Assembly (NCBI GenBank): GCA_964539385.1
Contig: CAZIJC010000001.1
Span: 16,860 to 80,859, forward strand
Length of the DNA: 64,000 nucleotides
Reading direction: 5' to 3'
Origin: an uncultured Anaerolineales bacterium
GTDB lineage: Bacteria; Planctomycetota; Phycisphaerae; FEN-1346
The notes under the pieces were generated by a model. It was given only the letters and a program-made list of their open reading frames with translations, was not told the DNA's origin and searched no databases. Position 1 is the stretch's first letter. Each line of letters opens with the position of its first letter. Below, in pieces: positions 14,396 to 43,502 of the stretch. The position numbers and the translations under genes are program-made.

Positions 14396-14399
14396 GTCC

Positions 14400-14472: not shown

Positions 14473-14484
14473 GGGGACTGGGTC

Positions 14485-19420: not shown

Positions 19421-19425
19421 CGGAC

Positions 19426-20566: not shown

Positions 20567-20595
20567 CGACGGCAGACGGCTGGAAGGAGTAGCGC

Positions 20596-20859: not shown

Positions 20860-20934
20860 CCGCGACCCGCCCGGCAGGCCGATCGCGCACGGCGCCGGGA
20901 TGCCAGGCAGCACCTTTTAGCCGCGACCCGCTTG
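20852..20934. repeat. Two 17-19 bp direct repeats (cttttagccgcgacccgc) flanking an about 45 bp spacer
   Basis: The copies lie at about 20852-20870 and about 20916-20934, in the intergenic region before the Tat ferredoxin gene. The TTAGCCGCG core also occurs in the REP element at 7831-7850. Confidence 0.5.
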
Positions 20935-20977
20935 TCCGCCGAAGCCTTGGCGGAGGCGGAAAGGGGAGCGCGTAACG

Positions 20978-21562
20978 ATGCCGACAGACAACGCCACCGA
21001 CACCACGATCACCCGCCGCAACCTGTTCCGCAAAGGCGGTCTGGCCGCCGGCGCAGCAGTTGTGACCGGGACGGCCGCCGCCCTGGCTGCAAAAGGACGC
21101 TCGGACGGAACGGTCTGGCAGATCGATCCGGAAAAGTGCATCCAGTGCGGCAACTGCGCGACGTACTGCGTGCTGGACCCGAGCGCGGTCAAGTGCGTGC
21201 ACGCGCTCAAACTGTGCGGCTACTGCGACCTGTGCTTCGCCTACTTTTCGCCGGGCTTCGAACCGGAAGCCGGCATCGAGGTGCCCGCCGTCGAGAGCCA
21301 GTTGTGCCCGACCGAGGCCATCAAGCGGCGCTGGATCGAAGGACCACACTACGAGTACACCATCGACGAGGAACTGTGCATCGGGTGCGGCAAGTGCATC
21401 AAGGGATGCAACAATTTCGGCAACGGCTCGCTCTTCCTCCAGGTCATGCACAACCGCTGTGTGAACTGCAACGAGTGCTCCATCGCCGAAGCGTGCCCGT
21501 CGGATGCGTTTCAGCGCGTGCCCGCCGACCACCCCTACCTTCTGAAAGGCGAGGACCACTAA
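20978..21562 (+). CDS. Tat-exported 4Fe-4S ferredoxin-type protein (NapG/MauM-like)
   Basis: TRRNLFRKGGLAAGAAVV is a twin-arginine signal. Four Cys clusters are present (CIQCGNCATYC, CGYCDLC, CIGCGKCIKGC, CVNCNECSIAEACP). Confidence 0.7.
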   Translation: MPTDNATDTTITRRNLFRKGGLAAGAAVVTGTAAALAAKGRSDGTVWQIDPEKCIQCGNCATYCVLDPSAVKCVHALKLCGYCDLCFAYFSPGFEPEAGIEVPAVESQLCPTEAIKRRWIEGPHYEYTIDEELCIGCGKCIKGCNNFGNGSLFLQVMHNRCVNCNECSIAEACPSDAFQRVPADHPYLLKGEDH

Positions 21563-21564
21563 GT

Positions 21565-24689: not shown

Positions 24690-24748
24690 CCCCGCCTGGC
24701 AAGGCGGGGTCGAAGCCCCGACCAGCCCCGCCTGGCAAGGCGGGGTCG
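24688..24748. repeat. Tandem pair of identical hairpin repeats (agCCCCGCCtggcaaGGCGGGGtcg) after the propeller gene
   Basis: Two copies at 24688-24712 and 24724-24748, each a 7 bp GC stem with a TGGCAA loop. Confidence 0.6.
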
Positions 24749-24763
24749 CAGTGTGGTTGACCC

Positions 24764-27136
24764 ATGACGCAAACAGACCTTGACCTGGCATTCGTGGATG
24801 AGGCGGTCGAGCGAATCGGTCGCGGCCCGGAGTCCGCCATCCCCATCCTCCAGGCCATCCAGGACCACTACCGCTACCTGCCCGCCGAAGCGCTGCGCCG
24901 CGTCTGCCGTCTGACCGAGATCACCCCCGCCCGGATCGTCGGCGTTGCGACGTTCTACACGCAGTTCCGCCATCGCCCTATGGGCAAACACCTGGTCCGC
25001 GTCTGCATCGGAACCGCCTGCCACGTCAAAGGCGCAGGGGTGATCCACGATGCCTTTCTCAAGCACCTCGGCGTCCCGGATGGCGAGGACACCGACCCGG
25101 ACGGTCTCTTCACGGTCGAGAGGGTCGCCTGCCTCGGCTGCTGCACGCTCGCGCCGGTCGCCCAGATCGGCGACCTCACCTACGGCCACCTGACGCCCGA
25201 GCGCACGGGGCAGGCCATCCACGACTTCCTGGAATCCGAGAAGCGCCGCGCCGACCGCCGGCCCGGCGAGGGCGGCCCGGCGAAACCCGGAGCCGAAGCC
25301 GCCCTGCCGGCGGGAGAGATCCGCATTACCCTGGACACCTGCTGCATAGCGCGCGGCAGCGGCTACGTGTACGAGGCACTCCTGGACGCCGTAGCCGACA
25401 CCGGCGCGCGGGCCGTCGTCAAGGGCGTCGGCTGTACCGGCATGACGTACCTGACGCCTCTGGTCACCGTAACCGAGCCCGGCCGCCCCCCTGCCCTGTA
25501 CGCCAACGTCGCGCCGCAGGACGCCGAGGCGATCGTGCTCCGTCATTTTCGGCCGCACGGACACCTCGCACGGGCCGGCAAGGCCGTCTCGCGGCTGCTT
25601 GACCAGGTTCTGACCGACGAGGCGTGGGAACCTCTCCAGCGCTACGCCGTCGATGTTCGCGATCCGCCGATCTCCGAGTTTCTCGGACCGCAAAAGCATA
25701 TCGCCACCGAGCACTCCGGCCGCGTGCAGCCGACGAACCTCGACGAATACCTCGACCGCGACGGGTTCCAGGCGCTCGAACGGTGCGTCACGGGCCGCTC
25801 GCCCGACGAGGTGATCGAGGAGGTTCGCGTCTCGGGCCTGCGCGGCCGCGGCGGCGCGGGGTACCCCACGAGCCTGAAGTGGCAGGCCGTCCGCCGCGCC
25901 GACGCCGACAAGAAGTACGTCGTCTGCAACGGCGACGAGGGCGACCCCGGCGCGTTCATGGACCGCATGATCCTCGAATCGCATCCGTACCGCGTCCTGG
26001 AGGGCATCGCGATTGCCGCCACGGCGGTCGGCGCCGAGGAAGGCGTGCTCTACATCCGGGCGGAGTATCCGCTGGCTGTCCGCCGCATCAGCGAGGCCAT
26101 CCGCCGCTCGACCGAGCGCGGCTTCCTGGGCGACGATATCCTGGGCACCGGCCGCCGGCTGCACCTGCGGATCATGCAAGGCGCCGGCGCGTTTGTGTGC
26201 GGCGAGGAGACGGCCCTGCTGGAATCGATCATGGGCCGCCGCGGCATGCCGCGACTCAGGCCGCCCTTCCCCGTTGAAAGCGGCCTCTGGGGCTGCCCGA
26301 CGCTCGTCAACAACGTCGAAACGCTTGCCCTGCTGCCGTGGATCATCCGAAACGGTGCGGCGGCCTTCGCCGAACTCGGCACCGACCACAGCAAAGGCAC
26401 GAAGGTTTTCTCGCTGGCCGGCAAGGTCAAGCGCGGCGGCCTGATCGAGGTGCCCATGGGGGTCACCATCCGCGAGATCGTCGAGGAGATCGGCGGCGGC
26501 ATGACGGGAGACCGCAAGTTCAAGGCCGTACAGATAGGCGGCCCTTCGGGCGGATGCCTCCCCGAGCGCCTGGCCGATATCCCGGTTGACTACGAGGCGC
26601 TGACCGAGGTCGGCGCCATGATGGGCTCGGGCGGCCTCGTGGTCCTCGACGACAAGGACTGCATCGTCGATATCGCCCGCTACTTCCTGGCGTTCACGCA
26701 GGACCAGTCGTGCGGCCGGTGCACGCCCTGCCGCGTCGGCACGCGCCGGATGCTCGACGTCCTGGACCGCCTGTGCGAGGGCCAGGGCAGGAAAGGCGAT
26801 ATCGAGGAACTTGAGGAACTGGCCTGGTACATCAAGAAGGCCAGTCTCTGTGGCCTCGGCAGCACGGCGCCCAATCCGGTCCTCACGACGATCGAGTATT
26901 TCCGCGATGAATACGAGGCCCACATCGATGGCCGCTGCCCCGCCGGACGCTGCAAGGCCCTCATCACCTACTCGATTACCGACGACTGCATCGGCTGCAC
27001 GCAGTGCGCCCAGCACTGCCCGTCCGAAGCGATCGCCATGCGCCCATACGAGAAACACGAGATCCAAGAGGACAAATGCGTCCGCTGCGACACCTGCCGC
27101 CAGGTCTGCCCGGTCGATGCCGTGGAAGTGACGTGA
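24764..27136 (+). CDS. NuoE-NuoF fusion flavoprotein (NADH-binding, FMN, Fe-S; HoxF/HndC/FdsB-like) with two C-terminal 4Fe-4S ferredoxin domains
   Basis: 790 aa. N-terminal NuoE-like thioredoxin-fold 2Fe-2S Cys residues (CIGTACH, CLGCC). NuoF motifs GRGGAGYPT, FVCGEETALLESI and SCGRCTPC. The C-terminal CIGCTQCAQHCP and CVRCDTCRQVCP are 4Fe-4S motifs. Confidence 0.8.
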   Translation: MTQTDLDLAFVDEAVERIGRGPESAIPILQAIQDHYRYLPAEALRRVCRLTEITPARIVGVATFYTQFRHRPMGKHLVRVCIGTACHVKGAGVIHDAFLKHLGVPDGEDTDPDGLFTVERVACLGCCTLAPVAQIGDLTYGHLTPERTGQAIHDFLESEKRRADRRPGEGGPAKPGAEAALPAGEIRITLDTCCIARGSGYVYEALLDAVADTGARAVVKGVGCTGMTYLTPLVTVTEPGRPPALYANVAPQDAEAIVLRHFRPHGHLARAGKAVSRLLDQVLTDEAWEPLQRYAVDVRDPPISEFLGPQKHIATEHSGRVQPTNLDEYLDRDGFQALERCVTGRSPDEVIEEVRVSGLRGRGGAGYPTSLKWQAVRRADADKKYVVCNGDEGDPGAFMDRMILESHPYRVLEGIAIAATAVGAEEGVLYIRAEYPLAVRRISEAIRRSTERGFLGDDILGTGRRLHLRIMQGAGAFVCGEETALLESIMGRRGMPRLRPPFPVESGLWGCPTLVNNVETLALLPWIIRNGAAAFAELGTDHSKGTKVFSLAGKVKRGGLIEVPMGVTIREIVEEIGGGMTGDRKFKAVQIGGPSGGCLPERLADIPVDYEALTEVGAMMGSGGLVVLDDKDCIVDIARYFLAFTQDQSCGRCTPCRVGTRRMLDVLDRLCEGQGRKGDIEELEELAWYIKKASLCGLGSTAPNPVLTTIEYFRDEYEAHIDGRCPAGRCKALITYSITDDCIGCTQCAQHCPSEAIAMRPYEKHEIQEDKCVRCDTCRQVCPVDAVEVT

Positions 27137-27149
27137 GGACGGACCATCT

Positions 27150-27693
27150 AACCGCAGAGAACGCAGAGAACGCAGAGCAACGGCAAAGAATCGGGCAACA
27201 GCAAAACCGCCTGATACAAAGGTGTCGGCGATGAACGAGGAACTCAACCGGATAACAGAGGCCATCATCGGCGCAGCAATGGACGTTCATCGCGAACTCG
27301 GTCCGGGGCTGCTTGAGTCCGCTTACGAAGCCTGCCTCGCCTATGAACTGATTCAACGCGGCTTCAAGGTCGAGCGGCAAAAGACGCTTCCCTTGAAATA
27401 CCGAGACGTCACATTGGACTGCGGCTACCGAATCGACCTGTTGGTCGAAGGGCAAGTGGTGGTAGAAGTCAAAGCGGTCGAGCAGTGGAACCCGGTTCAC
27501 CAGGCCCAGGTTCTCTCGTACTTGAAACTGTCCGGATGCAGAGTGGGGCTTATCATCAATTTTAACGTGAGGATGCTCAAGACGGGCATTAAGCGGTTCG
27601 TCCTTGGACTGAAGGAGTAACCACGCGCAGACCGTGTGCTCATGGCTGCACGCTTCTCAATTACCCTCTGCGTTCTCTGCGTTCTCTGCGGTT
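27150..27693. mobile_element. GxxExxY-gene cassette bounded by perfect 28-bp terminal inverted repeats (AACCGCAGAGAACGCAGAGAACGCAGAG), inserted between two flavoprotein subunit genes
   Basis: Left arm 27150-27177, right arm 27666-27693 (reverse complement). Each arm contains (AGAGAACGC)n. The RBS and ATG of the downstream gene lie immediately outside the right arm. Confidence 0.5.
27231..27620 (+). CDS. GxxExxY family protein (PD-(D/E)xK-like)
   Basis: 130 aa. GPGLLESAY matches the GxxExxY signature, and the C-terminal block YRIDLLVEGQVVVEVKAV is present. Confidence 0.7.
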   Translation: MNEELNRITEAIIGAAMDVHRELGPGLLESAYEACLAYELIQRGFKVERQKTLPLKYRDVTLDCGYRIDLLVEGQVVVEVKAVEQWNPVHQAQVLSYLKLSGCRVGLIINFNVRMLKTGIKRFVLGLKE

Positions 27694-27710
27694 AAAAGGA
27701 ATGGTCGATA

Positions 27711-29279
27711 ATGCCGAGACTGGTGATCGACAACCAGGATGTTGAAGTCCCTGAAGGCGCCACCATTCTTGATGCTGCACGCCAACTCGGAATCGAGATC
27801 CCGACGCTGTGCTTCCGCCAAGGCTGCGAGCCGTCAACCTCCTGCATGGTGTGCGTCGTCAAGGTGAAGAACCCCGACCGGTTCGTGGCTTCCTGCGGCG
27901 CGCGGGCCGCCGAGGGGATGATTGTTGAGAGCCGGACGGAAGAGGTCCGCGAGGCCCGGCGAACGGCGCTGGAACTGTTGCTCTCCGACCATCCGGCCGA
28001 TTGTATCGCCCCCTGCCAGACCGTGTGCCCGGCGCAGATGAACATCCCGCGCATGATCCGCCGGATCGCGGCCGGCGACGCCGCAGCAGCAGCCGAAACG
28101 GCCCGAACGGCGCTCGTCCTTCCCGCAACGCTCGGCCGCATCTGCCCTGCCCCATGCGAAAAAGGCTGCCGCCGTGCCCGCCACGACGCCGCCGTCTCCA
28201 TCCGCCTCCTGCACCGCCACGCCGCCGAAACCGACCTTGCGTCGGCCACTCCGTGGCTGCCTGCATGCCAACACGACACGGGCAAGCGCGTCGCCATCGT
28301 CGGCGCCGGGCCGGCGGGGCTGGCCGCCGCATGGCGCCTGCTTCAGGAAGGACACGGCGCGACGCTGTTCGACGATCGCGAAGCGCCCGGCGGCATGCTC
28401 CGCTACGGCGTTGAGGAAGACCTCCTGCCACGCAGCGTCCTCGATGCCGAGATCGCCCTCATCGAGCAACTCGGCGCCGAGTTCCGCGGCAGCACCAGGG
28501 TCGGACGCGATGTCGCCATCGTCGAACTGGCTGGCGATTTCGACGCCGTCCTCGTGGCCTGCGGCCGGATGGTGGAAGGCGACGCCGGGCAACTCGGCCT
28601 CGAAGCGGCCGAGAAGGGCCTCAAGACCACCCGGCAGACCTTCGAGACACCGACGGCCGGCGTGTTCGCCGCAGGCGATGCCCTCCAGCCCCGCCGGATG
28701 GCCGTCCGCGCCGTCGCCGACGGCAAAGCCGCCGCCCGTTCCATCATCCAGTACCTGGCCGGCCGGCCCGTCGTCGCACCGGAAAGGCCGTTTACGACGC
28801 ATCTCGGCCACCCGACCGACGAAGAAATGACACCGATGCTTGCCGCCGCAAGCCTCGACGCCCGCGTCGTTCCTTCCGGCGGCGAGGCCGCAGGCTTTAC
28901 ATCCGACGAGGCCTGCCGCGAAGCGCCGCGGTGCCTTCACTGCGACTGCCGCAAGGCCGACACCTGCCTCCTGCGCAAATGGGCGCTTGCGCTCGGCGCC
29001 AAACCGACCCGCCACAGCGGGACGCGGCGGCCGTTCGAACTCCACGTCTCGCACCCCGACGTCGTGTACGAGCCCGGCAAGTGCATCGCGTGCGGCCTAT
29101 GTATCCAGGTGGCGGCGCGAAGGGGCGAGGCACTCGGTCTGACGTTTATCGGCCGCGGCTTCGCTGTGCGGGTCGGCGTTCCCTTCAACGAAACCATTGC
29201 GGAGGCTCTGAAAGTAGCCGCCGCCGAATGTGTCGCAGCCTGTCCGACGGGGGCCCTGGCCTTCAAGAACCAAGCGTAA
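27711..29279 (+). CDS. 2Fe-2S ferredoxin (NuoG/HydA N-terminal-like) fused to GltD-like FAD/NAD(P)H-binding oxidoreductase, with C-terminal 4Fe-4S
   Basis: MPRLVIDNQDVEVPEGATILDAA is a NuoG-like start with Cys residues. VAIVGAGPAGLAAA is a dinucleotide-binding motif. GVFAAGD is present. C-terminal CIACGLC...CPTG. The AAAAGGA SD sits 10 nt upstream. Confidence 0.7.
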   Translation: MPRLVIDNQDVEVPEGATILDAARQLGIEIPTLCFRQGCEPSTSCMVCVVKVKNPDRFVASCGARAAEGMIVESRTEEVREARRTALELLLSDHPADCIAPCQTVCPAQMNIPRMIRRIAAGDAAAAAETARTALVLPATLGRICPAPCEKGCRRARHDAAVSIRLLHRHAAETDLASATPWLPACQHDTGKRVAIVGAGPAGLAAAWRLLQEGHGATLFDDREAPGGMLRYGVEEDLLPRSVLDAEIALIEQLGAEFRGSTRVGRDVAIVELAGDFDAVLVACGRMVEGDAGQLGLEAAEKGLKTTRQTFETPTAGVFAAGDALQPRRMAVRAVADGKAAARSIIQYLAGRPVVAPERPFTTHLGHPTDEEMTPMLAAASLDARVVPSGGEAAGFTSDEACREAPRCLHCDCRKADTCLLRKWALALGAKPTRHSGTRRPFELHVSHPDVVYEPGKCIACGLCIQVAARRGEALGLTFIGRGFAVRVGVPFNETIAEALKVAAAECVAACPTGALAFKNQA

Positions 29280-29317: not shown

Positions 29318-31309
29318 TCAGCACTCGGCGCCGGCGAAGCCGAGGTACTCGTCGAGCCAATCGTCGGCCCGCAAGACACCCTTGCGCTGGGCGAGGCTGA
29401 GGTGCTCGGCCCGCCGCTGGGCGGCGTTGAAGGCGTGGCGCGAGAGGTAACCGCTGACTTCCCGCTCGGTCCGCCCGTAGCGCCGGCGAAGCGACGCCGA
29501 CAGGTGCGGCGCGTGGCGGCGGACGAGTTCGTCTTCCAGGCTGACGACCGCCTGGGCCGAGCCGCGGTCGCCCTGGCGGGCACTTCGGCCGAAGAGTTGC
29601 CGGTCGATGCGCCCGGCCTCGTGACGTTCGGTAGCCAGGACGTGCAGGCCGCCGAGGTCCGCCACGCCGGCGCCCAGTTTGATGTCGGTCCCGCGTCCGG
29701 CCATGTTGGTCGCGACGGTGATCTTTCCGGGCTGGCCGGCGGCGGCAGTCACCTGGGCCTCCTCGCGGTGGCGGACGGCGTTCAGAACCTGATGGTCCAA
29801 GCCGGCGTCGGTCAGAAGGCGGCTCAGGTGCTCGCTCGCGCGGACGCTGCGGGTGCCGACGAGAATAGGCCGGCCGGTCTCGTGAAGGCGCCGAATCTGG
29901 CCGACGATGGCCTTCCACTTGGCGTCCTGGGTCGCGTACACGCGGTCGGGCAGGACCTTGCGGATGCACGGCCGGTTCGTCGGGATGGTGACAACCGGCG
30001 CGTGGTAAATCTGCCAGAACTCGCGCCAGGCCTCGGCGGCGGTGCCGGTCATGCCGCCGAGTTTGCGGTAGAGACGGAAGAACCGCTGAAAACTGACCCT
30101 GGCGTACGTGTCCTTGGGCGGCTGGACCTCGACCTGTTCCTTGGCCGAGACCGCCTGGTGCAGGCCGTCGCGCCATTCGCGGTCGGGCATGAGGCGGCCG
30201 GTAAACTCGTCGACGATGACGACCTTCTCCTCCTCGTCGATGATGTACTGCTTGTCGCGCAGGTAGAACTCGCGAGCGGTCAGGGCCTGGGTGACGAGTT
30301 CCTCGCGGCGTCTCGCCCCGGCCCACACGCCGCCCAGGTCGTCGGCCAGTTCCTCAAGGCGGTCCTTGCCGGCGGGCGTCAAGTCGACTTCGCGGTACCG
30401 CTGGTTCACGCGGAAGTCGCGCGCCGGATCCAACTGGGCCACCAGGTAGGCCGCCTGGCGGAAGGCTTCGACCTGTTCGGGGTTGGGCGCCTCGCCGGAG
30501 ATGATGAGCGGCGTGACGGCCTCGTCGATGAGAATGGAATCGGCCTCGTCGACGATCACGAAGTGCAGCCCGCGTTGAACGAGCCGGTCTGTGCCGCTGC
30601 CGGCGCCTTCGGCGATCTTGGCCATCAGGGCCGACGGCAGCCCCTGGAGCCGGCCCAGCGACAGGCGGTCGCGAAGGAAGTCGGCCGTCACCTCCTTGTT
30701 CGTGCAATAGGTGATGTCGGCCTGATAGGCCTCACGGCGATCGGGCGACTGCATGCCCTGCTCGACGGCAGCCACCCGCAGCCCGCAGAACCGGTAGATC
30801 GAACCCATCCAGTCGGCGTCGCGTGTGGCCAGGTAATCGTTGTGGGTGACGATGTGGCAGCCCTTGCCCCGCCATCCCTCGATGGTGGCGGGCAGCGTCG
30901 CGGCGAGGGTCTTGCCCTCGCCGGTGGCCATCTCGGCGATGCAGCCGGCCTCCAGCGCCAGTGCCCCGGCAACCTGAACGCGGAAGATGCTCATGCCGGT
31001 TTGGCGCCGGGCCACTTCGCGGACCAGGGCAAACGCGTGCTCCAGAACCTCATCCGTGGCGCCGCCGCGCCGGAAGCGATCGCGCATCTCGGCGGCGGCG
31101 TCGCGCAGCCGCCCGGAACCGAGGTCACGGTGCTCCTTTTCGAGGGCCAGCACACGCTCGGCCCGGCGCAGGAACCGCATGCGACGGGGCACGAAGGCCT
31201 TGGCGATGCCGACGGCGGCGTCCCAGGCGGCATCCACGCCCCTGGGCAGCGGCCTGTCGGGCGTACGTTGCGCCAGCGTTCGCCACGTTGTGCTTGGAAT
31301 ACGGACCAC
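29318..31309 (-). CDS. SecA-like preprotein translocase ATPase, short form (663 aa; SecA2-like, lacking the long C-terminal domains)
   Basis: Aligns to the SecA motor domains: MSIFRVQVAGALALEAGCIAEMATGEGKTLAATLPA, VTHNDYLATRD, YQADITYCTNKE, VDEADSILIDEA, ATNMAGRGTDIKLG. GTG start is 1 nt after the upstream gene's stop. Confidence 0.7.
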   Translation of the reverse strand: MVRIPSTTWRTLAQRTPDRPLPRGVDAAWDAAVGIAKAFVPRRMRFLRRAERVLALEKEHRDLGSGRLRDAAAEMRDRFRRGGATDEVLEHAFALVREVARRQTGMSIFRVQVAGALALEAGCIAEMATGEGKTLAATLPATIEGWRGKGCHIVTHNDYLATRDADWMGSIYRFCGLRVAAVEQGMQSPDRREAYQADITYCTNKEVTADFLRDRLSLGRLQGLPSALMAKIAEGAGSGTDRLVQRGLHFVIVDEADSILIDEAVTPLIISGEAPNPEQVEAFRQAAYLVAQLDPARDFRVNQRYREVDLTPAGKDRLEELADDLGGVWAGARRREELVTQALTAREFYLRDKQYIIDEEEKVVIVDEFTGRLMPDREWRDGLHQAVSAKEQVEVQPPKDTYARVSFQRFFRLYRKLGGMTGTAAEAWREFWQIYHAPVVTIPTNRPCIRKVLPDRVYATQDAKWKAIVGQIRRLHETGRPILVGTRSVRASEHLSRLLTDAGLDHQVLNAVRHREEAQVTAAAGQPGKITVATNMAGRGTDIKLGAGVADLGGLHVLATERHEAGRIDRQLFGRSARQGDRGSAQAVVSLEDELVRRHAPHLSASLRRRYGRTEREVSGYLSRHAFNAAQRRAEHLSLAQRKGVLRADDWLDEYLGFAGAEC

Positions 31310-31310
31310 G

Positions 31311-33488
31311 TCAGATCTGGAACCTCCGCTGCAACATCTGAAGCAGGGCGCGTTTCGCCTGCGACAGAAGCGGTTTGGGCGTGGTGTCGAAGCGGATGAC
31401 GACGCGCTGGCCTGCCAGCAGCCGCACGCCGTCGCTCGGGTCGGGAGTCACCTGGATCTCGAAGACGCGTTCGGCCGTCTGCGTGCCCGTGGGGTCGTCG
31501 GGCTTGGTGGCAATCGGTCCGCCGGCGGGGAACGACAGAGCCGGTGACGGCAGCCGGTCCCCGCCGGCCGGAAGGAACTGCTTGATGCGGCCGCCTATCT
31601 GCTTGTCCGGCCGCCCGTCCATGCGGATCTCGACGCGCTGGGCGGCGTCTTCCATCAGGGCGCCCGCAACGTCCTGGCCCGCCACGGCCCGCACGACAAG
31701 CGTGTCCATCGTCGCCACCAGCCCAATGGCCTGGCCGCGGGTCAGGTAGGCGCCCTTGAGGCGATCGATGTTCGGCGACACCCACATGCCGGCGAGGGGT
31801 GAGCGGATCTGGAGGGCGGCCAGTTGCTGGCGAATGCGGTCGAGTTTCTCGTCCACCGCGCCGATCTGTTCCTCGACGATCTGGACGGCTGCCGGCTCCT
31901 GGACGAGCGCCGCCCCGCGGCGGGCGACGAGTTCCCGCCGTTCCGCCAGGAGTTGCTCGTGCCCGGCCGTGAGCATCGGGTTGACCGACCGGGCGAGCAA
32001 CGGCCCGCCGGGCGTCACGTTCCGGCCGGAGGGAAAGAACTCGTCCAGAAACCCGTCGGCGCCGGCGTGGACGATCTGCATCTCGGCGGGTTCGACCACG
32101 GCCTCGACATAGAACGGATCGGGCGCCGGAACGAGGCCGAGCCCCGCCAGAATGAGTGCCGGCACCGCCACCGACGTCGTCACCGCCCAGGCCCGGACGC
32201 GCATCAGTTCGCCGCTTGAGACAAGATAGTAAATGAACTTGCCGATGGGGACCATGACCCACGCGATGACGGCCATGGCGGCCAGGATGACGCCGACGAA
32301 GGGCAGAAACCCCGACACGAACAGCAGAATCGCCACCGAAATAAAGATGCGGTACGCCGTCGAGGCCACGGCGTAGAACAGCAGCCACCCCTTCTCGCCC
32401 CTCGTGTGCGACGGGTCGCGGGGCTGGCGCGCCCGCCAGATGTACCGCTTGACCAGATAGTACAGGTACTCCTTCGACCGCTGCGCCAGGTTTGGTATCT
32501 CCAACACGTCCGAGAAGATGTAGTACCCGTCGTACCGGAGGAGCGGGTTGCCGTTGAACAGGAGCGACGAAACGCTCGCGATAAACATCACGTTATAGCA
32601 GATGGCGTGGATGGCGGCGGTCTCGGACGTCTGCGACCAGACGACCGCCGCCACCGCCGCGATGCCCAGTTCGACGAACATCCCCGAAGCGCCCACGACC
32701 ACGCGGTGCCACGTGCTGCGAAGCGCCCAGGCGCTCGATGCGTCCACGTACGGAAGGGGCGTAAAGACCAGGAACATGATGCCCATGACGTGGACCTCGC
32801 CGCCCGAGCCGCTCCCGCGCCCGAACTTCTTGCACGCAAAGGCGTGGCCGAACTCGTGGAAGACCTTGACCACCACGAAACTGGCGTACAGAAGGGGCAG
32901 GCTTTCGGGATCGAGGATGCTCGAGGCCCGGCTCACGAGGTCGCCCGCCCGACCGGCGATGAAGTAAACGCCCGTTGCCAGAAGCCCGAACCACAGGACC
33001 AGGCCCCACCAACTGAAGACCGCGCCGAAGACGCCCACAAAACGGTCCAGAAACCAGTCGGGGTCAATCAGCGGAACGCGGATGAACAGCAGATTCGTCA
33101 TGTACCCCTGCACTTCGCGGGTAACGCGTTTCTTGTATCGCCGGAACAGGCCCTCGGCATCGGGCGGCATGTCGCCGTGCAGAAGGTTCGATGTGTAGAG
33201 TTGCCCCAGAAGTTGGATGGCCTCGCCCTGGGTGGGTGCGCTGTCGCCCAACTGCTCGTTGCAGACGTTCCAGACCTGGGCGATGTTCCGCCGGCCGTCC
33301 AGCAGCCCCACGAAACGGTACGCCGCCTCGTTCAGGCGGAAAAACTGATTGTTCGACGGGTCCTGGATGACGTGCCACATCTGGCCGCGGTAGTGCTGCC
33401 GGTGCGTCTGCAGGGTGGACCTGAGGCGCGGCCGCAGATTCGACACGCGGTACCACGACTCGCTGAACGTGGGACGATCGACCGGCAT
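31311..33488 (-). CDS. Site-2-protease (peptidase M50, HExxH) domain fused to HlyD-like periplasmic adaptor domain, membrane protein
   Basis: 725 aa. HEFGHAF zinc motif within a multi-TM region. The C-terminal ~300 aa have the coiled-coil and beta-barrel pattern of HlyD/membrane-fusion proteins (RSPLAGMWVSP...LVVRAV). Confidence 0.6.
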   Translation of the reverse strand: MPVDRPTFSESWYRVSNLRPRLRSTLQTHRQHYRGQMWHVIQDPSNNQFFRLNEAAYRFVGLLDGRRNIAQVWNVCNEQLGDSAPTQGEAIQLLGQLYTSNLLHGDMPPDAEGLFRRYKKRVTREVQGYMTNLLFIRVPLIDPDWFLDRFVGVFGAVFSWWGLVLWFGLLATGVYFIAGRAGDLVSRASSILDPESLPLLYASFVVVKVFHEFGHAFACKKFGRGSGSGGEVHVMGIMFLVFTPLPYVDASSAWALRSTWHRVVVGASGMFVELGIAAVAAVVWSQTSETAAIHAICYNVMFIASVSSLLFNGNPLLRYDGYYIFSDVLEIPNLAQRSKEYLYYLVKRYIWRARQPRDPSHTRGEKGWLLFYAVASTAYRIFISVAILLFVSGFLPFVGVILAAMAVIAWVMVPIGKFIYYLVSSGELMRVRAWAVTTSVAVPALILAGLGLVPAPDPFYVEAVVEPAEMQIVHAGADGFLDEFFPSGRNVTPGGPLLARSVNPMLTAGHEQLLAERRELVARRGAALVQEPAAVQIVEEQIGAVDEKLDRIRQQLAALQIRSPLAGMWVSPNIDRLKGAYLTRGQAIGLVATMDTLVVRAVAGQDVAGALMEDAAQRVEIRMDGRPDKQIGGRIKQFLPAGGDRLPSPALSFPAGGPIATKPDDPTGTQTAERVFEIQVTPDPSDGVRLLAGQRVVIRFDTTPKPLLSQAKRALLQMLQRRFQI

Positions 33489-33536
33489 GGGTGTATCCGT
33501 TTGCGAGCCGCGAGCGCCAACGAGCGGGCGCCTTAC

Positions 33537-33584
33537 GGTCGCGGCTCGAAAAGGCTCATTGTCGCGGCTCGAAAAGGCTCATTT
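33537..33584. repeat. Perfect 24-bp tandem direct repeat (GTCGCGGCTCGAAAAGGCTCATT x2) between the two HlyD-like genes
   Basis: On the coding (minus) strand each copy starts with ATG and reads as an 8-codon micro-ORF (MSLFEPRQ*, MSLFEPRP*). The first begins 1 nt after the upstream gene's stop. Confidence 0.7.
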
Positions 33585-35473
33585 CAGATCCACAACTTCA
33601 TCCGCACCCACCGAACGATGGGGCGGGTCCAGATCCAGATGTAGGGGCGGCAGTCGATGCCCACCTTGGCAATCCCCTCAAGGCCAGGACGCATCCGGCC
33701 GTCCAGCCGTTTCAGCCGCACACGCACCTTGAACACGTTCTTCTGCTCGGCCACCTCGGCCACCGGGTTGATCCGCTCGACCACGAACCCGAAATGCACG
33801 TCCGGGAACGACGCCGTCGCCAGTTCCCCTTCCTGGCCCACCTCCAGATCCGAGACGTCCTCTTCGGGCACAGACAGTTCTGCACGCAGCGCCTCGAGCG
33901 GGGCCACCTCAAACAGCGTGTCCCCGGTCTTGACCGGCGCGCCGATCTGTCGCTCCAGGTCGCCCTTCACGACCACGCCGCTGATGGGTGCGATGATCTT
34001 CGCCTGAGAGATTTTGTAATCGATCAGGTTGATGCTTGCGGCCACCTTGTCGGCCTGCGCCTGGGCGATCTGGGACTCGACCGTCTTGTAATCGCGCCTC
34101 GCGGCGGCAGCCTGTTTCAGGTATGTCGCACGTTCGGCCTTGGCGGCGGCCAGTTGCAGGCGCAGGTCCGCCGTCTCGAGCGTCGCCATCACGCTCTTGC
34201 CGCCGACAACCTTTTTGTTCGGCTCCGTGGAAACGGTCTGGAGGTATCCGTCGAACGGGGCGGGCACGACCCGCAGTTCGATCGGCTCCAGGACAAACGG
34301 CGCTTCGATTCGGTAATCGCCCTGGATGAAGATCGTGAACGCCAGGAATCCGCAGATCGCAATGACGGCCAATTTGATCCAGGTGTGTTTCGGCCCCGCC
34401 ACCGCCGCAGCGCCTTTCCGGACGGCCGCCGCCATCCGGGCGCCGAACCAGCGGTCGTTCTCTTCGAGGTTCGCCAGGCGCGGCGTACAGAGGTCGGCCG
34501 CCAGCCGAAGCGACTCCACTTCCTCGACCGTAAACGCCTCCCCGCCCGGTCGCTCGAGCGTCAGGACGGCCGTGACCTCGCCGGCTCGTCTGAGCGGCAG
34601 GCTCAACGCCATCACCGCCCCGTGATGCTTCGCGAGTTCGTCCGCAGCCCGGCTGACGTACGTGGCCTCCGGCGGCGCCGGATACAGGATCTCGACGTCC
34701 TGGTCCAGGCACTCCTCCATCGCGGCTTCGATGTCTTGGACCAGTTTCATTTTGCGGCTGAACTTCTCGGTGTGGCTCATCGCACGCAGGTGCACGTACC
34801 TGCCCTTGAGGAAGCCGACGCTGACCCTCTCGCATTGCCATCGCGCGGCCACCTCGTTGGCGAGTGCCATCGCCATGCCGGCAAACCGTTCCTGGACGTT
34901 GACGGCGGCCAGCGTTTCCATAGCCGCACGCAGGCGCCTCAGGTCCGTCTGCCGGCGCTGAAGGAGCAGGCGCATCTCGTAGAGGCTGAGCAGGCCGACC
35001 GTCAACTCCAGCCGCCCGCGAACGCCGGCCAGAACGGTCGAATCCTGGGCATCGGCGTAAAACGCCGCCACCCCGCGAACCGCACGCTCCCCGCGAAGCG
35101 GCACCAGGATGAGGCTGCGGCGGGCGGGCTGGCCGTACAGGTCGTCCGGGCTGTGCACCGCCTGGACGGTCGTGGCGCCCCCGGCAACGACCGTGCGGCA
35201 GGCCTCGGCGGCCTGGGCCAGCCAGACGGGCGCTGCCGCGCCCTCGGGCAGCGGCGGATAGACCGCCAGGACGTCTGCTCCGCGCTGGCGCCCGGCCCGC
35301 AGGATCGCCCCGCATTCGGCCGGACCGATCTGGCACTGCACCGCGAGGAGGTTGGAGAGGAACTGCTCCGGCGGGCCGTCGAAACGGCTCAGCCGGTCGA
35401 TGACGTCGGCGGTCGTCAAGTGTATGGCGCCGCCGGGCTGCCGGGAAGCCTCCATCTGTGCCATTGCGGGCAC
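33584..35473 (-). CDS. GAF-domain(s) + single TM + HlyD-like membrane fusion/adaptor protein
   Basis: 629 aa. The N-terminal ~330 aa have two GAF-like segments. TM helix WIKLAVIAICGFLAFTIFI. The C-terminus has a beta-strand/coiled-coil/lipoyl-like HlyD pattern (RLQLAAAKAERATYLKQAAAARRDY, IIAPISGVVVKGD). Confidence 0.6.
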   Translation of the reverse strand: MPAMAQMEASRQPGGAIHLTTADVIDRLSRFDGPPEQFLSNLLAVQCQIGPAECGAILRAGRQRGADVLAVYPPLPEGAAAPVWLAQAAEACRTVVAGGATTVQAVHSPDDLYGQPARRSLILVPLRGERAVRGVAAFYADAQDSTVLAGVRGRLELTVGLLSLYEMRLLLQRRQTDLRRLRAAMETLAAVNVQERFAGMAMALANEVAARWQCERVSVGFLKGRYVHLRAMSHTEKFSRKMKLVQDIEAAMEECLDQDVEILYPAPPEATYVSRAADELAKHHGAVMALSLPLRRAGEVTAVLTLERPGGEAFTVEEVESLRLAADLCTPRLANLEENDRWFGARMAAAVRKGAAAVAGPKHTWIKLAVIAICGFLAFTIFIQGDYRIEAPFVLEPIELRVVPAPFDGYLQTVSTEPNKKVVGGKSVMATLETADLRLQLAAAKAERATYLKQAAAARRDYKTVESQIAQAQADKVAASINLIDYKISQAKIIAPISGVVVKGDLERQIGAPVKTGDTLFEVAPLEALRAELSVPEEDVSDLEVGQEGELATASFPDVHFGFVVERINPVAEVAEQKNVFKVRVRLKRLDGRMRPGLEGIAKVGIDCRPYIWIWTRPIVRWVRMKLWI

Positions 35474-35564
35474 CCACGTCAGGGAGACCGGAACAGGGCC
35501 ACGGGAACCGACAACCGTTCGCCGGACGGTCGCGAGCCCGGTCGCCTGATCTGCGATCGTCGCT

Positions 35565-35972
35565 CTACTGCGTGCCGGCCTGGTCGCCGGGCGGAACGCG
35601 GTCCAGCGAAATCTCGCCGAACTGCTCCTCGTGCCGACGAATCATCTGACCCAGCGCCAGCGCCAGCCGCTTCGTCATGCGGTAACTCATGACGATACGC
35701 TCGTTGACCTGAAAGATGAACTCCGGCTTGCCTTGCTGTGCGGCAACGGGGTCGATGAGGTTCAACCCGAAGTAGAGCATAACCTCGTCGGTCGTCGCGT
35801 CGGTGCGGAATGCGTTGGCGTAACTGGTGTTGAGGTTTCGCTCGTCGATCCGCAGGCGGATCTCCTGCTTCTGCCCCTCACCGGCGGGCTGCTCAGCAGC
35901 GGGCTGAGCCTCCGTGGGTTGAGGCTCGGCGGGCGGTTGGCCCTTTGCATCAGGATCGCTCTTGGCTGCCAT
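35565..35972 (-). CDS. DUF3467-like small protein
   Basis: 135 aa with a low-complexity Pro/Glu/Ala N-terminus. The conserved core NTSYANAFRTDATTDEVMLYFGLN...FIFQVNERIVMSYRMTKRL matches my recollection of DUF3467. It is first in the minus-strand operon. Confidence 0.45.
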   Translation of the reverse strand: MAAKSDPDAKGQPPAEPQPTEAQPAAEQPAGEGQKQEIRLRIDERNLNTSYANAFRTDATTDEVMLYFGLNLIDPVAAQQGKPEFIFQVNERIVMSYRMTKRLALALGQMIRRHEEQFGEISLDRVPPGDQAGTQ

Positions 35973-36207: not shown

Positions 36208-36236
36208 GGCCGGTCGCCCGCCGAGGGCGACCGGCC
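36208..36236 (-). terminator. Candidate intrinsic terminator for the CARDB-repeat gene (12 bp GC stem GGCCGGTCGCCC/GGGCGACCGGCC, then a T-rich tail on the minus strand)
   Basis: Perfect 12-bp inverted repeat with a GCCGA loop. The minus-strand downstream sequence is TTTGGTATGTTTGT. Confidence 0.35.
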
Positions 36237-36323: not shown

Positions 36324-38855
36324 TTACACAACGACCTCGTTCACGCCTGTCGGCAGGTTCCACGTGCGGCCGACCGTATTATAGGTGATGGTGCCGGTGC
36401 CGACCGACTCGGCGCCGAAGCACAACCGCCGGATCGTCCACACGTCCAACGTGCTATTGTTGATGAAGTAGTTGACGCCTACGCCGCGGACGTACATCAA
36501 GCCCAACGTGGCGTGCGTGCCGGCCGGGATCACCGTAGCCAGCGAAATGGCGGAGTTGTCGATCGCGCCGGCATAGATTGAACGGACATTCGCGTCAAGA
36601 GTCAGACCGGAACCGTTGATCGTGCCGAGCACGGCGACCCTTGCAGCCGAGCCATCGATGTCCCAGGCGGCATTGATCAGGTCGCCACCAACGCGGGCCG
36701 TGCCGAGCGTGTGCCGTCCCGCAATCAGATTCCCGGCCAGGGTCAGGTCCAGGCTGTTGACGTCGCCGGTGGCCCTGAAGTGGTTGATCGAGGGGGTCGT
36801 GATAACGTCGGCGACGCCGCCGCTGTCCGTCCAATCCTGGGCGATCAGCCAGCCGACGGGCGTGCCCGACGTGACAACCAGATCGATCACGCTGCCCAGG
36901 CGCATTGAGAGCGTATCCCTGGCCCCGACCTGCGCGCCGACCTGGACCTCGCCGCCGTTCACGTCGTTGAGCCAGAGTAACCTGAGCGTGCCCGGCACGT
37001 CGATCAGGCTGCCCCCGGCCCCATCGTCCACAAAATCAACGGTGGGGGCATGGATGCGGCCGAGCGAGCCGTCCCAGGCGAGCCCGACGTCGTCGTCCAC
37101 GGTAATGCTTTCGACCTCCGTCGTCACGCCCCGGGCCGTCCTCATGGCGAATGCCGACCGCCTCGTCGTTTCGTACAGGGTCACGTCGAAGCCGTTCACG
37201 CCGTTGGCCACCTCGGCCCAGGACCCCCTCATCACGAAGGTCACGAGGTCGCCGTTGGGGTCCTCGATCTGCATTCTGGAGTTGGGGTGGGCCGCGTCGA
37301 AACTGCCGAACTTCCACACGATGGCGGCCTGGTTGGCGGCCGCATCGGTGTTGTTGGTCTCGTCGGCTTCGGCGATGGTGTCGCCCGAATCCACGACGGC
37401 CAGGACGTTGTAGTTGCCGGCCGGGATGTCCGCCGGCACCTGGCTCACGAGCCAGTAGGTCCTGGCCTGTCCGGCCGTGAGGGAGATGCGGCACGTGCGC
37501 TGGCCGAACAGGTAGTCGCCGCCGTCAATGACGCCGTCTACGGACCCGTACAGTTGGATGGTGGCCAATCCGGACGCCGTTCCGGCGCCGCCGTTGGTAA
37601 CCGCGACGGGAATCCGCCACCTGTCGCCGGGAATCTGCTCGGCGCCCGTGACGAAGGCATCGTCAATCGCGATCGTCAGGTCCGGGCCGACGCCCAGGGT
37701 GCCGACGATCGAGGCATTGTTGGCCTCGGAGTACTCGGTGACGCCGCCGGGCTGATCGGCCACGCCGAACAGCGTGTACCCCTGGCCGCCCGCAGGCGCG
37801 TTGAACGAGATCGTGTCGGTCGTGTCGGCGCCGGCGGCGAGCGTGGTCACGTTGTAGGAGCCGACCTGGGTATCGGCGCCCGCGTCGAAGGTGCCGTCGG
37901 TCGAGGTCCAGAGCGACACCGTCCACGGAGTCACGCCTGGGTCGCCGTCGTCCTCGGCGACCGCGAAACCGGCATTGTTGACCTGCACGGGCACGTCAAC
38001 CTGTTGACCAGCAGCGGCCTGATACACGGTTGCCGCCGCCTCGATCGTCAGGTCCGGCCCGACCGACAGGGTCCCGAGCGACGCCGTGTTGTTGGCGTCG
38101 TCATCCTCGGTGACCTCGGTGTCGGAGTCGGCGTAGCCGAACAGCGTGTACTCGCCGGGCACGGGCGCGGCAAAGGAGATCTGGTTCGCCGTGCTGTCCT
38201 GGCCATCAAGGGTCGTCAGGTTGTAGGAGCCGACCTGCGTATCGCCCGCGTCCCAGATGCCGTCGGTCGAGGTCCACAGCGACACCGTCCACTGGCCCAC
38301 CCCCGGGTCCACGTCCGTGACGGCCTGGGCGAAGCCGGTGTTCTCGACCGTGACGTCAACGTCCACGTTGGCGCCCTCCGCCGCCTCGTACGCGCCGGCC
38401 GCGCCCTGGATCTCCAGGTCGATGCCGACCAGCAGCGTCCCGACGATCGACGTGTTGTTGACCTCGGAGTTTTCGGCAACCTCCTCGTCGGAGTCGGCAA
38501 AGCCGAACAGCGTGTACGTGCCGGCCGCAGGGGCGTTGAAGGTGACCGTGTCGGTGGTGTCGCCCGCGGCAGCAAGGGTCACCACCTCGTAGTTGCCGAC
38601 GTTGGTGTCTTCCCCGGCGTCGAAGACCGCGTCGGCCGAGGTCCAGAGCGACACCGTCCAGAATCCGTCAACGGCTTCCGCGGCGGCATCGCCGATATTG
38701 TTCACCTGAATGTCAACATCGACACCCACGGCACCGCTGAGCGCCTCGTACGTGTCTGCCGCCGCCGTGATCGTCAGGTCTGCCGCCAATAGCAGGCGCG
38801 ACTCCAACGCCTCAAAACCGGGCTTTATGCCGCTTTTGTCGCTGTTTCTGTACAT
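36324..38855 (-). CDS. Secreted repetitive protein with four CARDB-like repeats of about 100 aa and a C-terminal beta-rich domain
   Basis: 843 aa. N-terminus MYRNSDKSGIKPGFEALESRLLLAADL. Internal repeats of the pattern WTVSLWTSTDG..DAGDTQVGSYN.TTL...FNAP..G.YTLFG.AD. No Cys-rich motifs. Confidence 0.6.
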   Translation of the reverse strand: MYRNSDKSGIKPGFEALESRLLLAADLTITAAADTYEALSGAVGVDVDIQVNNIGDAAAEAVDGFWTVSLWTSADAVFDAGEDTNVGNYEVVTLAAAGDTTDTVTFNAPAAGTYTLFGFADSDEEVAENSEVNNTSIVGTLLVGIDLEIQGAAGAYEAAEGANVDVDVTVENTGFAQAVTDVDPGVGQWTVSLWTSTDGIWDAGDTQVGSYNLTTLDGQDSTANQISFAAPVPGEYTLFGYADSDTEVTEDDDANNTASLGTLSVGPDLTIEAAATVYQAAAGQQVDVPVQVNNAGFAVAEDDGDPGVTPWTVSLWTSTDGTFDAGADTQVGSYNVTTLAAGADTTDTISFNAPAGGQGYTLFGVADQPGGVTEYSEANNASIVGTLGVGPDLTIAIDDAFVTGAEQIPGDRWRIPVAVTNGGAGTASGLATIQLYGSVDGVIDGGDYLFGQRTCRISLTAGQARTYWLVSQVPADIPAGNYNVLAVVDSGDTIAEADETNNTDAAANQAAIVWKFGSFDAAHPNSRMQIEDPNGDLVTFVMRGSWAEVANGVNGFDVTLYETTRRSAFAMRTARGVTTEVESITVDDDVGLAWDGSLGRIHAPTVDFVDDGAGGSLIDVPGTLRLLWLNDVNGGEVQVGAQVGARDTLSMRLGSVIDLVVTSGTPVGWLIAQDWTDSGGVADVITTPSINHFRATGDVNSLDLTLAGNLIAGRHTLGTARVGGDLINAAWDIDGSAARVAVLGTINGSGLTLDANVRSIYAGAIDNSAISLATVIPAGTHATLGLMYVRGVGVNYFINNSTLDVWTIRRLCFGAESVGTGTITYNTVGRTWNLPTGVNEVVV

Positions 38856-39123
38856 GGCAGTCTCCTATCCAGCATCAGAGATTATCCCAGCCTAGATTGC
38901 TTTGGGAGCGCTTTTCCTGTTTCGGCAACATCGCGCGCGGCCGGCCACTTTTTTCTTAAAAAAGGGCGAATTATCCTGACGACCTGCGGCCAAGCCTCAA
39001 GCGCCCGAAAACCACGCCTCAAGACACGCCGCCGGCCACTCTTTGCATTAAAAACCTTGGAATCGCTGTTTGCGAGAACGTGGAGTGCCTTCGGGGCTCC
39101 AACTCCGGGTTGCGAAACTGTCC

Positions 39124-39152
39124 TTGACAGGCCCCAGGCCATTCAGTCTAGT
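39124..39152 (+). promoter_or_regulatory. Candidate sigma-70 promoter (TTGACA, 17 bp spacer, TCTAGT) for the TolB/cytochrome gene
   Basis: Perfect -35 and a 4/6 match at -10, about 50 nt upstream of the ATG at 39201. Confidence 0.3.
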
Positions 39153-39200
39153 GAACTTGCCGCTTTGACGTGCCATCGAACCGTGCAGGACGCCGCTGCC

Positions 39201-43454: not shown

Positions 43455-43502
43455 GTAACAGGAGCGCCCGTCCGCTTCGGTGACACGCAAGGGACGCGTA
43501 AC

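Follow-up and report, generated by a model that had tools for sequence, protein, structure and literature searches.

A conserved operon with a short SecA paralogue, a protease-adaptor fusion and LEPR-XLL neighbour proteins as the possible core of a TolC-dependent exporter

Results

A four-gene operon in a planctomycetal genome fragment

The window studied here is the whole stretch of 64 kb (G+C about 67%) from contig CAZIJC010000001.1, which is deposited under an uncultured Anaerolineales bacterium and placed by GTDB in the Phycisphaerae. Its minus strand carries four consecutive genes for a DUF3467 protein, two fusions that each contain a HlyD-type periplasmic adaptor (membrane fusion protein, MFP) and a short SecA paralogue, and these genes, together with a neighbouring protein with a LEPR-XLL leader, are the subject of this report. 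Loci of this type were already described in 2015 (Kamneva, Poudel & Ward, PLoS One 10:e0129066; PMC4452313), a fact missed by an initial annotation of this sequence, and the window holds a further, experimentally uncharacterised member. Because spurious long open reading frames (ORFs) are frequent at the G+C content of the window, ORFs were filtered by their G+C content at third codon positions (GC3), which left a single clear gene per stretch. The GC3 of all four ORFs of the operon was 0.80-0.88, which is of the coding type. The features of the locus are as follows.

35972..35565, minus strand: DUF3467 protein (PF11950), 135 amino acids (aa), first gene of the operon
35473..33584, minus strand: GAF::MFP, 629 aa, with a GAF domain, one transmembrane (TM) helix and a HlyD-type MFP domain
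33488..31311, minus strand: RRE::M50::MFP (M50-MFP below), 725 aa, with a PqqD/RRE-like domain (RRE, RiPP recognition element; RiPP, ribosomally synthesized and post-translationally modified peptide), a polytopic HExxH protease and an MFP domain
31309..29318, minus strand: short SecA paralogue, 663 aa, GTG start
36236..36208, minus strand: intrinsic terminator, 12-bp GC-rich stem and T tract, which ends the transcript of the upstream CARDB gene
38855..36324, minus strand: LEPR-XLL/CARDB protein, candidate cargo, 843 aa, directly upstream of the operon

The initial annotation had named four minus-strand genes for DUF3467, GAF::HlyD, protease::HlyD and short SecA proteins; all of them were found at its coordinates and the domain scans agree with it. 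It had also placed the start of the SecA gene 1 nt past the stop codon of the protease gene, and the TGA at 31313-31311 is indeed followed by one base and then by the GTG at 31309. The two genes are probably translationally coupled via this 1-nt spacer. At the other end, the strong terminator at 36236..36208 and a ribosome-binding site (GGAAGGAG) preceding the DUF3467 ATG indicate that the operon begins at the DUF3467 gene. Since these two signals lie upstream and the gene downstream (27711-29279) is convergent, the four-gene operon is real and its limits are correct.

The short SecA paralogue

In the Pfam scan, the short SecA matched SecA_DEAD (E 1.3e-101), P-loop_SecA (6e-57) and SecA_PP_bind (5.2e-26), and SecA_SW (PF07516) was not found. 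In the 783-residue SecA chain 3jv2_A, only residues 21-607 are covered by the alignment (18-604 in other top chains), and the protein ends about 10 residues further on. Both results are in line with the initial annotation, which had described a 663-aa SecA with the motor domains and without the long C-terminal regions. By comparison with published SecA structures, NBD1, NBD2 and the preprotein cross-linking domain are retained together with the first long helix of the scaffold. The helical wing domain and the C-terminal tail are lost, as is the two-helix finger, the element that inserts into SecY. The ATPase motifs are intact (Walker A GEGKT, DEAD-type VDEADSILIDEA, TGTA and NMAGRGTDI). The GTG at 31309 is probably the real start, because distantly related cluster representatives can be aligned with the resulting N-terminal extension from residue 4 onwards.

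The scores stayed below the curated cutoffs for housekeeping SecA (650.3 vs 814 and 628.3 vs 800 bits; NF009538 / TIGR00963) as well as for SecA2 (515.6/930, 437.3/725, 565.5/1085 and 446/1100 for TIGR03714, TIGR04221, TIGR04397 and NF012136). Planctomycetota, Phycisphaerae among them, encode hundreds of close homologues of 620-680 aa. When a library clustered at 50% identity was searched, about 130 of the best 150 representatives were 620-700 aa long, down to 39% identity, so that the short SecA is a distinct family. Two much larger proteins were also among the best matches and contain internal SecA motor regions: P0507 (1554 aa; region 456-1039) and P0508 (4930 aa; region 2979-3541).

The protease-adaptor, GAF-adaptor and DUF3467 proteins

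The 725-aa M50-MFP protein combines three parts. Its N-terminal residues ~20-103 (nt 33180-33431) form a PqqD/RRE-like domain, which scored 23.1 bits against the PqqD cutoff of 23.4 (PF05402) and was matched in 35 of 39 homologues (best E 3.8e-7); some homologues are labelled 'PqqD family peptide modification chaperone' by the NCBI annotation pipeline (PGAP). An AlphaFold2 model of the whole protein (pLDDT 74.7) places strands at 27-33, 36-43 and 48-52, followed by helices at 54-61, 69-83 and 87-99. This predicted beta-beta-beta-alpha-alpha-alpha arrangement would correspond to the winged-helix topology of RREs. This PqqD/RRE-like leader-recognition domain had been missed by the initial annotation and is absent from the 2015 report (PMC4452313).

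The central part is a polytopic core by hydropathy, with a protease domain of about eight helices. The intact zinc-protease motif that the initial annotation had recognised in this multi-TM protein, HEFGH, lies at residues 211-215 (nt 32844-32858), and a second motif, NGNPLLRYDG, at residues 312-321 (nt 32526-32555). Both motifs are kept among the 39 homologues, in which H211, E212, H215, N312, N314 and D320 are invariant. The window protein did not match PF02163 (Peptidase M50), which was matched at E<=1e-3 by 17 of the 39 homologues. In the NCBIfam scan it resembled the daptide, YydH and LiaK leader proteases, with daptide_HExxH (NF041824) covering residues 20-413 (E 2.3e-44; 152 bits vs the family cutoff of 300). 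The C-terminal residues ~454-725 form a periplasmic MFP domain, for which a Pfam HlyD_D23 match was obtained in the protein and/or its homologues and which resembles MexA, AcrA and MacA in structure, alpha-hairpin included (Foldseek E ~1e-11; TM score to target 0.5-0.68). A Foldseek search with the whole model gave MFP matches only, and none for the site-2 protease (S2P) core or the RRE.

The GAF::MFP protein has a GAF domain at residues 206-329 (nt 34487-34858), a single TM helix at residues 365-383 by hydropathy (nt 34325-34381) and a HlyD-type MFP domain with an alpha-hairpin at residues ~400-604 (nt 33662-34276; HlyD_3 E 1.7e-15). The GAF half is cytoplasmic and the MFP half periplasmic. 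The initial annotation had assigned tandem GAF domains to this protein; one of them is clear, and the N-terminal copy (residues 35-141) is a weak GAF-like stretch below threshold (E 0.0045). The DUF3467 protein matched PF11950 with 51.3 bits (E 1.3e-13) vs a gathering score of 25. It consists of a variable, acidic and Pro-rich N-terminal tail and a conserved core of about 90 aa, and 23 positions are invariant in 46 homologues.

Conservation of the module

One genome per GTDB species was scanned with an M50-MFP alignment, and a close relative was found to be encoded in 533 species genomes. The best 80 loci were fetched, and their genes were located by local tblastn. The GAF-MFP gene lies directly upstream of the M50-MFP gene in all of 61 loci, and the short SecA gene directly downstream on the same strand in 64 of the 67 loci with room for it. 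Moreover, a DUF3467 gene is found directly upstream of the GAF-MFP gene in 39 of 57 loci, and also in 4 alphaproteobacterial plasmid loci. That DUF3467 often joins the module as a fifth member, in Planctomycetota as well as in Alphaproteobacteria, is new in this analysis. Among 46 loci of at least 12 kb, 34 carry a third, short MFP and 11 a TolC-like outer-membrane efflux protein (OEP), and even distant short SecAs (39-43% identity) sit with the same partners plus OEP and short MFP. The closest genome is a planctomycetotal metagenome-assembled genome (MAG; JAUVZF010000026.1, 96% identity).

Conservation of gene order had been proposed in the initial annotation as a check, and it is evident from these counts and from alphaproteobacterial plasmids as well. 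The view of a dedicated module, and not of a secA gene beside unrelated genes, is supported by the conserved order and by the TolC-like OEP and third MFP in relatives. The initial annotation had read the locus as a dedicated export or processing system, in agreement with these comparative data and with the 2015 paper; its further ideas of ligand gating by GAF, of SecA as the energising component and of a protease coupled to export are putative. It had also pointed out that no ATP-binding cassette (ABC) or resistance-nodulation-division (RND) pump is encoded at the operon, and none is adjacent to it. A TolC or ABC partner just outside the window would, in its view, have spoken against its reading. 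As for TolC, it lies within the module of relatives, which strengthens the export reading and does not refute it; neither an ABC/FtsX nor an RND gene was linked to the module in 104 loci. A pair in the window at 13661-17835 (plus strand), an ABC ATPase with an unusually long FtsX-type permease (1116 aa, MacB/Lol-like), is 11.5 kb from the operon and was rejected as the missing pump, being unlinked to the module in those loci.

LEPR-XLL proteins beside the module

In many loci, a very long ORF lies directly beside the module. These neighbours belong to several unrelated families and have an N-terminal motif in common, F-E-x-L-E-x-R-x-L-L-[S/T/A]. We searched for LE.R.[LMVI]L[STA] in six frames of 1.25 Mb of loci plus the window, counting matches as N-terminal when they lay at most 150 residues from the start of an ORF of at least 300 aa. 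N-terminal positions accounted for 15 of the 17 matches, one of them in the window, and coordinate comparison showed that each of the 15 is in the gene adjoining the module. The controls gave 1.8 matches in total and 0.0 N-terminal ones after triplet shuffling, and 5 and 0 in the reversed sequence. The curated NCBIfam model for LEPR-XLL, NF012209, scored above cutoff for the window protein and for 5 of 6 neighbours tested (L016, L038, L066, L087 and L089), and the loci L087 and L089 are from distant lineages. The LEPR neighbours are often about 4,000-13,000 aa long. This recurrent LEPR-XLL neighbour of the module is added here beyond the 2015 paper.

The window member of this group is the 843-aa CARDB protein, which starts with MYRNSDKSGIKPGFEALESRLLLAADL. 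It has the LEPR-XLL leader GFEALESRLLLAADL at residues 13-33 (nt 38757-38819), where NF012209.1 (LEPR-8K, LEPR-XLL domain) scored 24.8 bits vs a cutoff of 17, followed by CARDB repeats (E 2.6e-36). No classical signal peptide was found on this protein, and it has the sole LEPR-type N-terminus in the window. It lies outside the coordinates considered in the initial annotation and is likely a cargo of the module. The CARDB gene was rejected as a universal neighbour, as its conservation is limited to the closest genome (L004); it is the LEPR N-terminus that recurs and not the protein family. On the other side of this gene, the plus strand encodes a protein with HZS_alpha (hydrazine-synthase-alpha-middle-domain) and PD40 repeats (39057-41669), and homologues also adjoin the module in L006, L025, L048 and L062. 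This protein was rejected as a second cargo, since it carries a classical signal peptide and lacks the LEPR motif.

LEPR-XLL giants on alphaproteobacterial plasmids

A tblastn search of PLSDB with M50-MFP retrieved plasmids and chromids, for which we used the PGAP annotation and computed the sizes of the candidate cargo proteins from the record coordinates. For six of them, the LEPR-type cargo is given below with the module genes in their order after it; the motif was read by eye at the N-termini of the Methylosinus, Mesorhizobium and Alisedimentitalea proteins, and the other three were named LEPR-XLL by PGAP.

Pseudosulfitobacter: 'LEPR-XLL domain-containing protein', 12,918 aa; GAF-MFP, site-2 protease, SapC, short SecA ('prepilin peptidase'), MFP
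Pontibrevibacter: LEPR-XLL, 10,603 aa; DUF3467, GAF-MFP, PqqD/M50-MFP, short SecA ('DEAD/DEAH box helicase'), MFP
Thalassospira: LEPR-XLL, 4,033 aa; DUF3467, GAF-MFP, M50-MFP, MFP, TolC; no SecA
Methylosinus: 8,847 aa, N-terminus FDTLEPRVLLNAD; DUF3467, GAF-MFP, M50-MFP, short SecA, MFP, TolC
Mesorhizobium: 10,518 aa, N-terminus FEALEPRLLLSAD; DUF3467, MFP, GAF-MFP, M50-MFP, short SecA
Alisedimentitalea: 8,148 aa, LEPRLLLAAD just upstream of the annotated start; GAF-MFP, M50-MFP, short SecA

More distant M50-MFP proteins of Azospirillum and Variovorax (24-27% identity) follow giants of 4,195 and 16,239 aa, which start with ALEPRFMFDAA or ALEARYMFDAA, and the order in their clusters is TolC, MFP, MFP, M50-MFP, without SecA. 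It is evident that a LEPR-type giant precedes the module in all eight plasmid loci inspected with a visible upstream side.

Some annotation problems were noticed in these records. The start of the Alisedimentitalea 'calcium-binding protein' (L094, NZ_CP123586.1, ~183224-183340) is annotated too far downstream, and an in-frame LEPR-XLL stretch (VVEQLEPRLLLAAD) lies before the annotated Met. The short SecA goes under the PGAP names 'prepilin peptidase' or 'DEAD/DEAH box helicase' (P0018, P0086, P0090; L092, L095, L097, L099) and M50-MFP under 'PqqD family protein', 'biotin/lipoyl-binding protein', 'peptidase' or 'hypothetical', and such inconsistent names make the module invisible in standard annotation. 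In addition, a SapC-family gene lies within or beside the module of Pseudosulfitobacter and Alisedimentitalea (L095 14263-15084, L094 958-1755), and no DUF3467 is annotated in either. SapC is an accessory of the Campylobacter S-layer type I secretion system (T1SS).

Other genes in the window and around related modules

The block downstream of the module (window 19327-29279) is syntenic with a Phycisphaerae contig (L001 12015-21965), whose short SecA is 74% identical to that of the window. It encodes GltD-like Fer2/Fer4_20/FAD and NuoF-like 2Fe-2S/FMN/4Fe-4S proteins, PQQ_2 beta-propellers, Fer4 proteins and an NHL protein. A cluster on the plus strand (5442-12339) resembles a pathway for hopanoids or terpenoids; its products are a 4Fe-4S protein, a radical SAM enzyme, a fusion of DUF116 with a polyprenyl synthetase, and two proteins like a prenyltransferase and a squalene-hopene cyclase. 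Further on, a protein of 496 aa with a weak match to Frankia_peptide (E 2.8e-4, below cutoff) and the B12-binding radical SAM enzyme that follows it (41964-44981, plus strand) could be a peptide-modification pair, and it is unconserved beside the module. On a marine metagenome contig (L084/L085, 12205-17986), the module is followed by contractile-injection genes (phage sheath, gp19 tube, baseplate and Pvc16). Several MAGs labelled Anaerolineales (L005, L007, L008, L011) or Actinomycetes/Actinomycetota (L017, L019) encode module proteins 59-94% identical to those of the window, and their neighbours in the identity ranking are labelled Planctomycetota/Phycisphaerae. These bins are probably mislabelled or contaminated.

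Discussion

A possible exporter for LEPR-XLL proteins

We regard it as somewhat probable that the four genes encode the core, in the cytoplasm and inner membrane, of a conserved type-I-like exporter that depends on TolC and is dedicated to proteins with a LEPR-XLL leader. The CARDB protein would be its cargo in the window. Domain content, motifs, gene order and the adjacency of LEPR proteins across phyla are observed, and from them we infer every functional step of this model. The PqqD/RRE-like domain (residues 20-105) of M50-MFP would bind the N-terminal LEPR leader (LEPR peptide MYRNSDKSGIKPGFEALESRLLLAADLTIT). The short SecA, with its motor and preprotein clamp and without the two-helix finger, would dock at the cytoplasmic face via GAF and/or RRE and thread the unfolded, often giant, cargo N-terminus first. 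The HExxH intramembrane site may cut off the leader, in the way that RiPP leader proteases and the peptidase domains of peptidase-containing ABC transporters (PCATs) couple cleavage to export. The MFP domains of both fusions, together with the third, short MFP in most relatives, would build a periplasmic duct to a TolC-like outer-membrane factor, which is presumably encoded elsewhere in the genome of the window. GAF may be a regulatory or docking module, and DUF3467 an accessory factor, possibly a cargo chaperone.

With more reserve, we propose that such loci might represent a previously unrecognised secretion class of diderm bacteria, a broader idea that we hold slightly short of an even chance: a truncated SecA, in place of an ABC transporter, would power the export of giant, adhesin-like proteins, N-terminus first, through TolC and a hetero-oligomeric duct of MFPs, with a LEPR leader read by the RRE and cut by an S2P-type protease, and the class would be widespread in Planctomycetota, Alphaproteobacteria and other phyla. 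With their 4,000-16,000 residues, such proteins rank among the largest that bacteria make, and to our knowledge the way across two membranes has been worked out at this size only for RTX adhesins with a C-terminal signal. If true, the model would mean a new energising mode for a TolC-coupled exporter and a second life of the SecA motor outside SecYEG. It supplies candidates for the signal (LEPR-XLL), the receptor (RRE), the protease (HExxH site), the motor (short SecA) and the duct (MFPs and TolC). Linking the LEPR-XLL tag to the secondary SecA locus of 2015 gives each of them a testable partner, and several cultured, genetically tractable Alphaproteobacteria carry the module, among them Methylorubrum extorquens AM1 (META1p2399-2402), Mesorhizobium ciceri R30 (on a plasmid), Methylosinus sp. 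C49 (pMSC49a) and Azospirillum brasilense Sp7 (p2).

Several observations weigh against this exporter model. The SecA gene is not adjacent in 3 of the 67 loci, where other genes lie downstream, nor in Thalassospira, Azospirillum and Variovorax, so the motor may be dispensable or replaceable. The candidate cargo of the window has its own terminator, is far below the typical LEPR size with its 843 aa, and shows upstream conservation in the closest relative alone. A tblastn search of the 64-kb window with the proteins of locus L001 yielded neither a third MFP nor an OEP, and the attempted fold assignment of the DUF3467 protein gave no result. At least one linked giant, the one upstream of the module in L084 (6,912 aa; RTX/DUF4347/LysM), carries RTX repeats; RTX and other calcium-binding repeats are typical of the cargo of ABC-type T1SS. 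A LEPR-XLL giant of Vibrio likewise has RTX/calcium-binding repeats (PMC10868602). Moreover, the locus encodes no obvious inner-membrane channel, a point already raised in 2015, and of the M. extorquens genes, that for GAF was the only one with observed expression during exponential phase (PMC4452313).

Other explanations of the locus

The lack of a channel-forming transporter in the module would fit a two-step route, in which the short SecA is an accessory motor of the SecA2 type that feeds SecYEG, M50 is a leader peptidase, and the MFPs and TolC serve only for the passage from the periplasm to the outside. The preprotein clamp and motor are retained in the short SecA, and mycobacterial SecA2, of which the wing domain is also reduced, works with SecYEG. 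The phylogeny of 2015 places the clade next to actinobacterial SecA2 (PMC4452313). Nevertheless, this route seems unlikely to us: the short SecA lacks the parts with which canonical SecA acts on SecY, namely the two-helix finger and most of its scaffold and wing regions, no SecA2 model of NCBIfam reached its cutoff, the LEPR leader is not a hydrophobic Sec signal, and the tight linkage to M50-MFP with its 1-nt spacer argues for a physical complex. We give still less credence to the idea that the giants exit otherwise, for example by an ABC-type T1SS with C-terminal RTX signals, and that the module is a processing or retention device, a regulated ATP-assisted protease that clips an N-terminal anchor, comparable to the LapD/LapG control of LapA or to quality control by an FtsH-like ATPase plus metalloprotease. 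RTX/HemolysinCabind repeats on some linked giants, the joining of a sensor-type cytoplasmic GAF to a protease-containing complex and the absence of SecA from some M50-MFP loci are consistent with such a device. However, the module of relatives itself includes an OEP of the TolC type and as many as three MFPs, with hairpins for docking to TolC, the 104 loci hold no linked ABC exporter, and there are complete, self-contained clusters with the order cargo, DUF3467, MFP, M50-MFP, SecA, MFP, TolC.

It is very improbable that the locus is a small-peptide RiPP system in which the RRE and the HExxH protease mature a short peptide encoded nearby for export by the MFPs. This possibility is suggested by the PqqD/RRE-like domain, by the likeness to the daptide, YydH and LiaK leader proteases and by a B12-radical-SAM gene with the weak Frankia_peptide protein 6-9 kb upstream, but the radical-SAM genes are not conserved neighbours and the conserved neighbour is instead a large LEPR-leader protein. 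There is no conserved small ORF in or beside the module, and a precursor-peptide gene in the intergenic gaps (~90 nt in the window, ~15 nt in relatives) was rejected for lack of room and of conservation. Finally, an ordinary housekeeping secA that lies by chance beside efflux-adaptor genes is effectively excluded. The top NCBIfam matches of the short SecA are SecA equivalog models, yet all SecA models stay below their cutoffs, and the protein lacks the wing domain as well as the two-helix finger and the C-terminal tail. In addition, the short SecA forms the distinct family of about 620-700 aa noted above, is linked to M50-MFP at nearly all loci with room (64/67), and is plasmid-borne in Alphaproteobacteria under PGAP names other than SecA. 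Carriers also have a canonical SecA (PMC4452313). From this and from the plasmid-borne copies, a canonical SecA is presumed for the genome of the window too, of which 64 kb were covered here.

Comparison with known systems

The closest match is the locus of Kamneva et al., in which the genes for 'secondary SecA_DEAD domain proteins' without the wing/scaffold domain adjoin those for Peptidase_M50-HlyD, GAF-HlyD and HlyD proteins and, in some cases, for an OEP, in Planctomycetes, Verrucomicrobia, Proteobacteria, one Nitrospirae and one Chlorobi (PMC4452313). They proposed a machine related to T1SS with SecA as its ATPase and left the function open. The window has the same short SecA without SW domain beside M50-HlyD and GAF-HlyD; the extra HlyD or OEP of some genomes is missing from it and present in its relatives. 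There is no mention of PqqD, DUF3467, giant neighbours or cargo in that paper, and the loss of the two-helix finger in the secondary SecA and the link to LEPR-XLL are additions of our study. In the literature searched, we found no functional follow-up of the secondary SecA locus, and no paper that links LEPR-XLL to a sorting machinery.

With T1SS (HlyB-HlyD-TolC; LapBCE), the module shares MFPs and an adjoining candidate cargo gene, as well as a TolC-type factor in relatives of the window, and the cargo is often giant, repeat-rich, calcium-binding or adhesin-like. In contrast to T1SS, it has no ABC transporter, and the candidate ATPase is a soluble SecA paralogue. It has two or three distinct MFPs, two of which are fused to GAF or to an intramembrane protease. 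The candidate signal is N-terminal (LEPR-XLL), whereas that of T1SS is C-terminal and uncleaved, a contrast for which the C-termini of the neighbouring proteins were inspected by eye only. Over its last 270 residues, the M50 protein superposes on MexA/AcrA/MacA including the alpha-hairpin, but this adaptor is fused after a protease, is neither a lipoprotein nor free-standing, and comes without an RND, ABC or major facilitator superfamily pump.

Leader recognition and cleavage coupled to export are common to the proposed exporter, to PCATs and to the HExxH leader proteases of RiPPs (NF041824; YydH/LiaK NF058609). On the other hand, the window protein is far below the family cutoff and fused to an MFP, and its apparent substrates are of 800-13,000 aa and not short peptides. 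In Chlorobium chlorochromatii, which has giant symbiosis proteins, one recently acquired secA (Cag_1676) and SapC/TolC beside the giants were reported (bioRxiv 10.64898/2026.03.19.712371). As in the accessory SecA2 systems of Actinobacteria and Firmicutes, the module contains a second, non-housekeeping SecA paralogue with a reduced C-terminal region, which would serve a subset of proteins as cargo. It differs from them by its diderm host, by MFP/TolC partners in the place of SecY2/Asp, and by a deeper truncation of SecA, in which the two-helix finger is lost.

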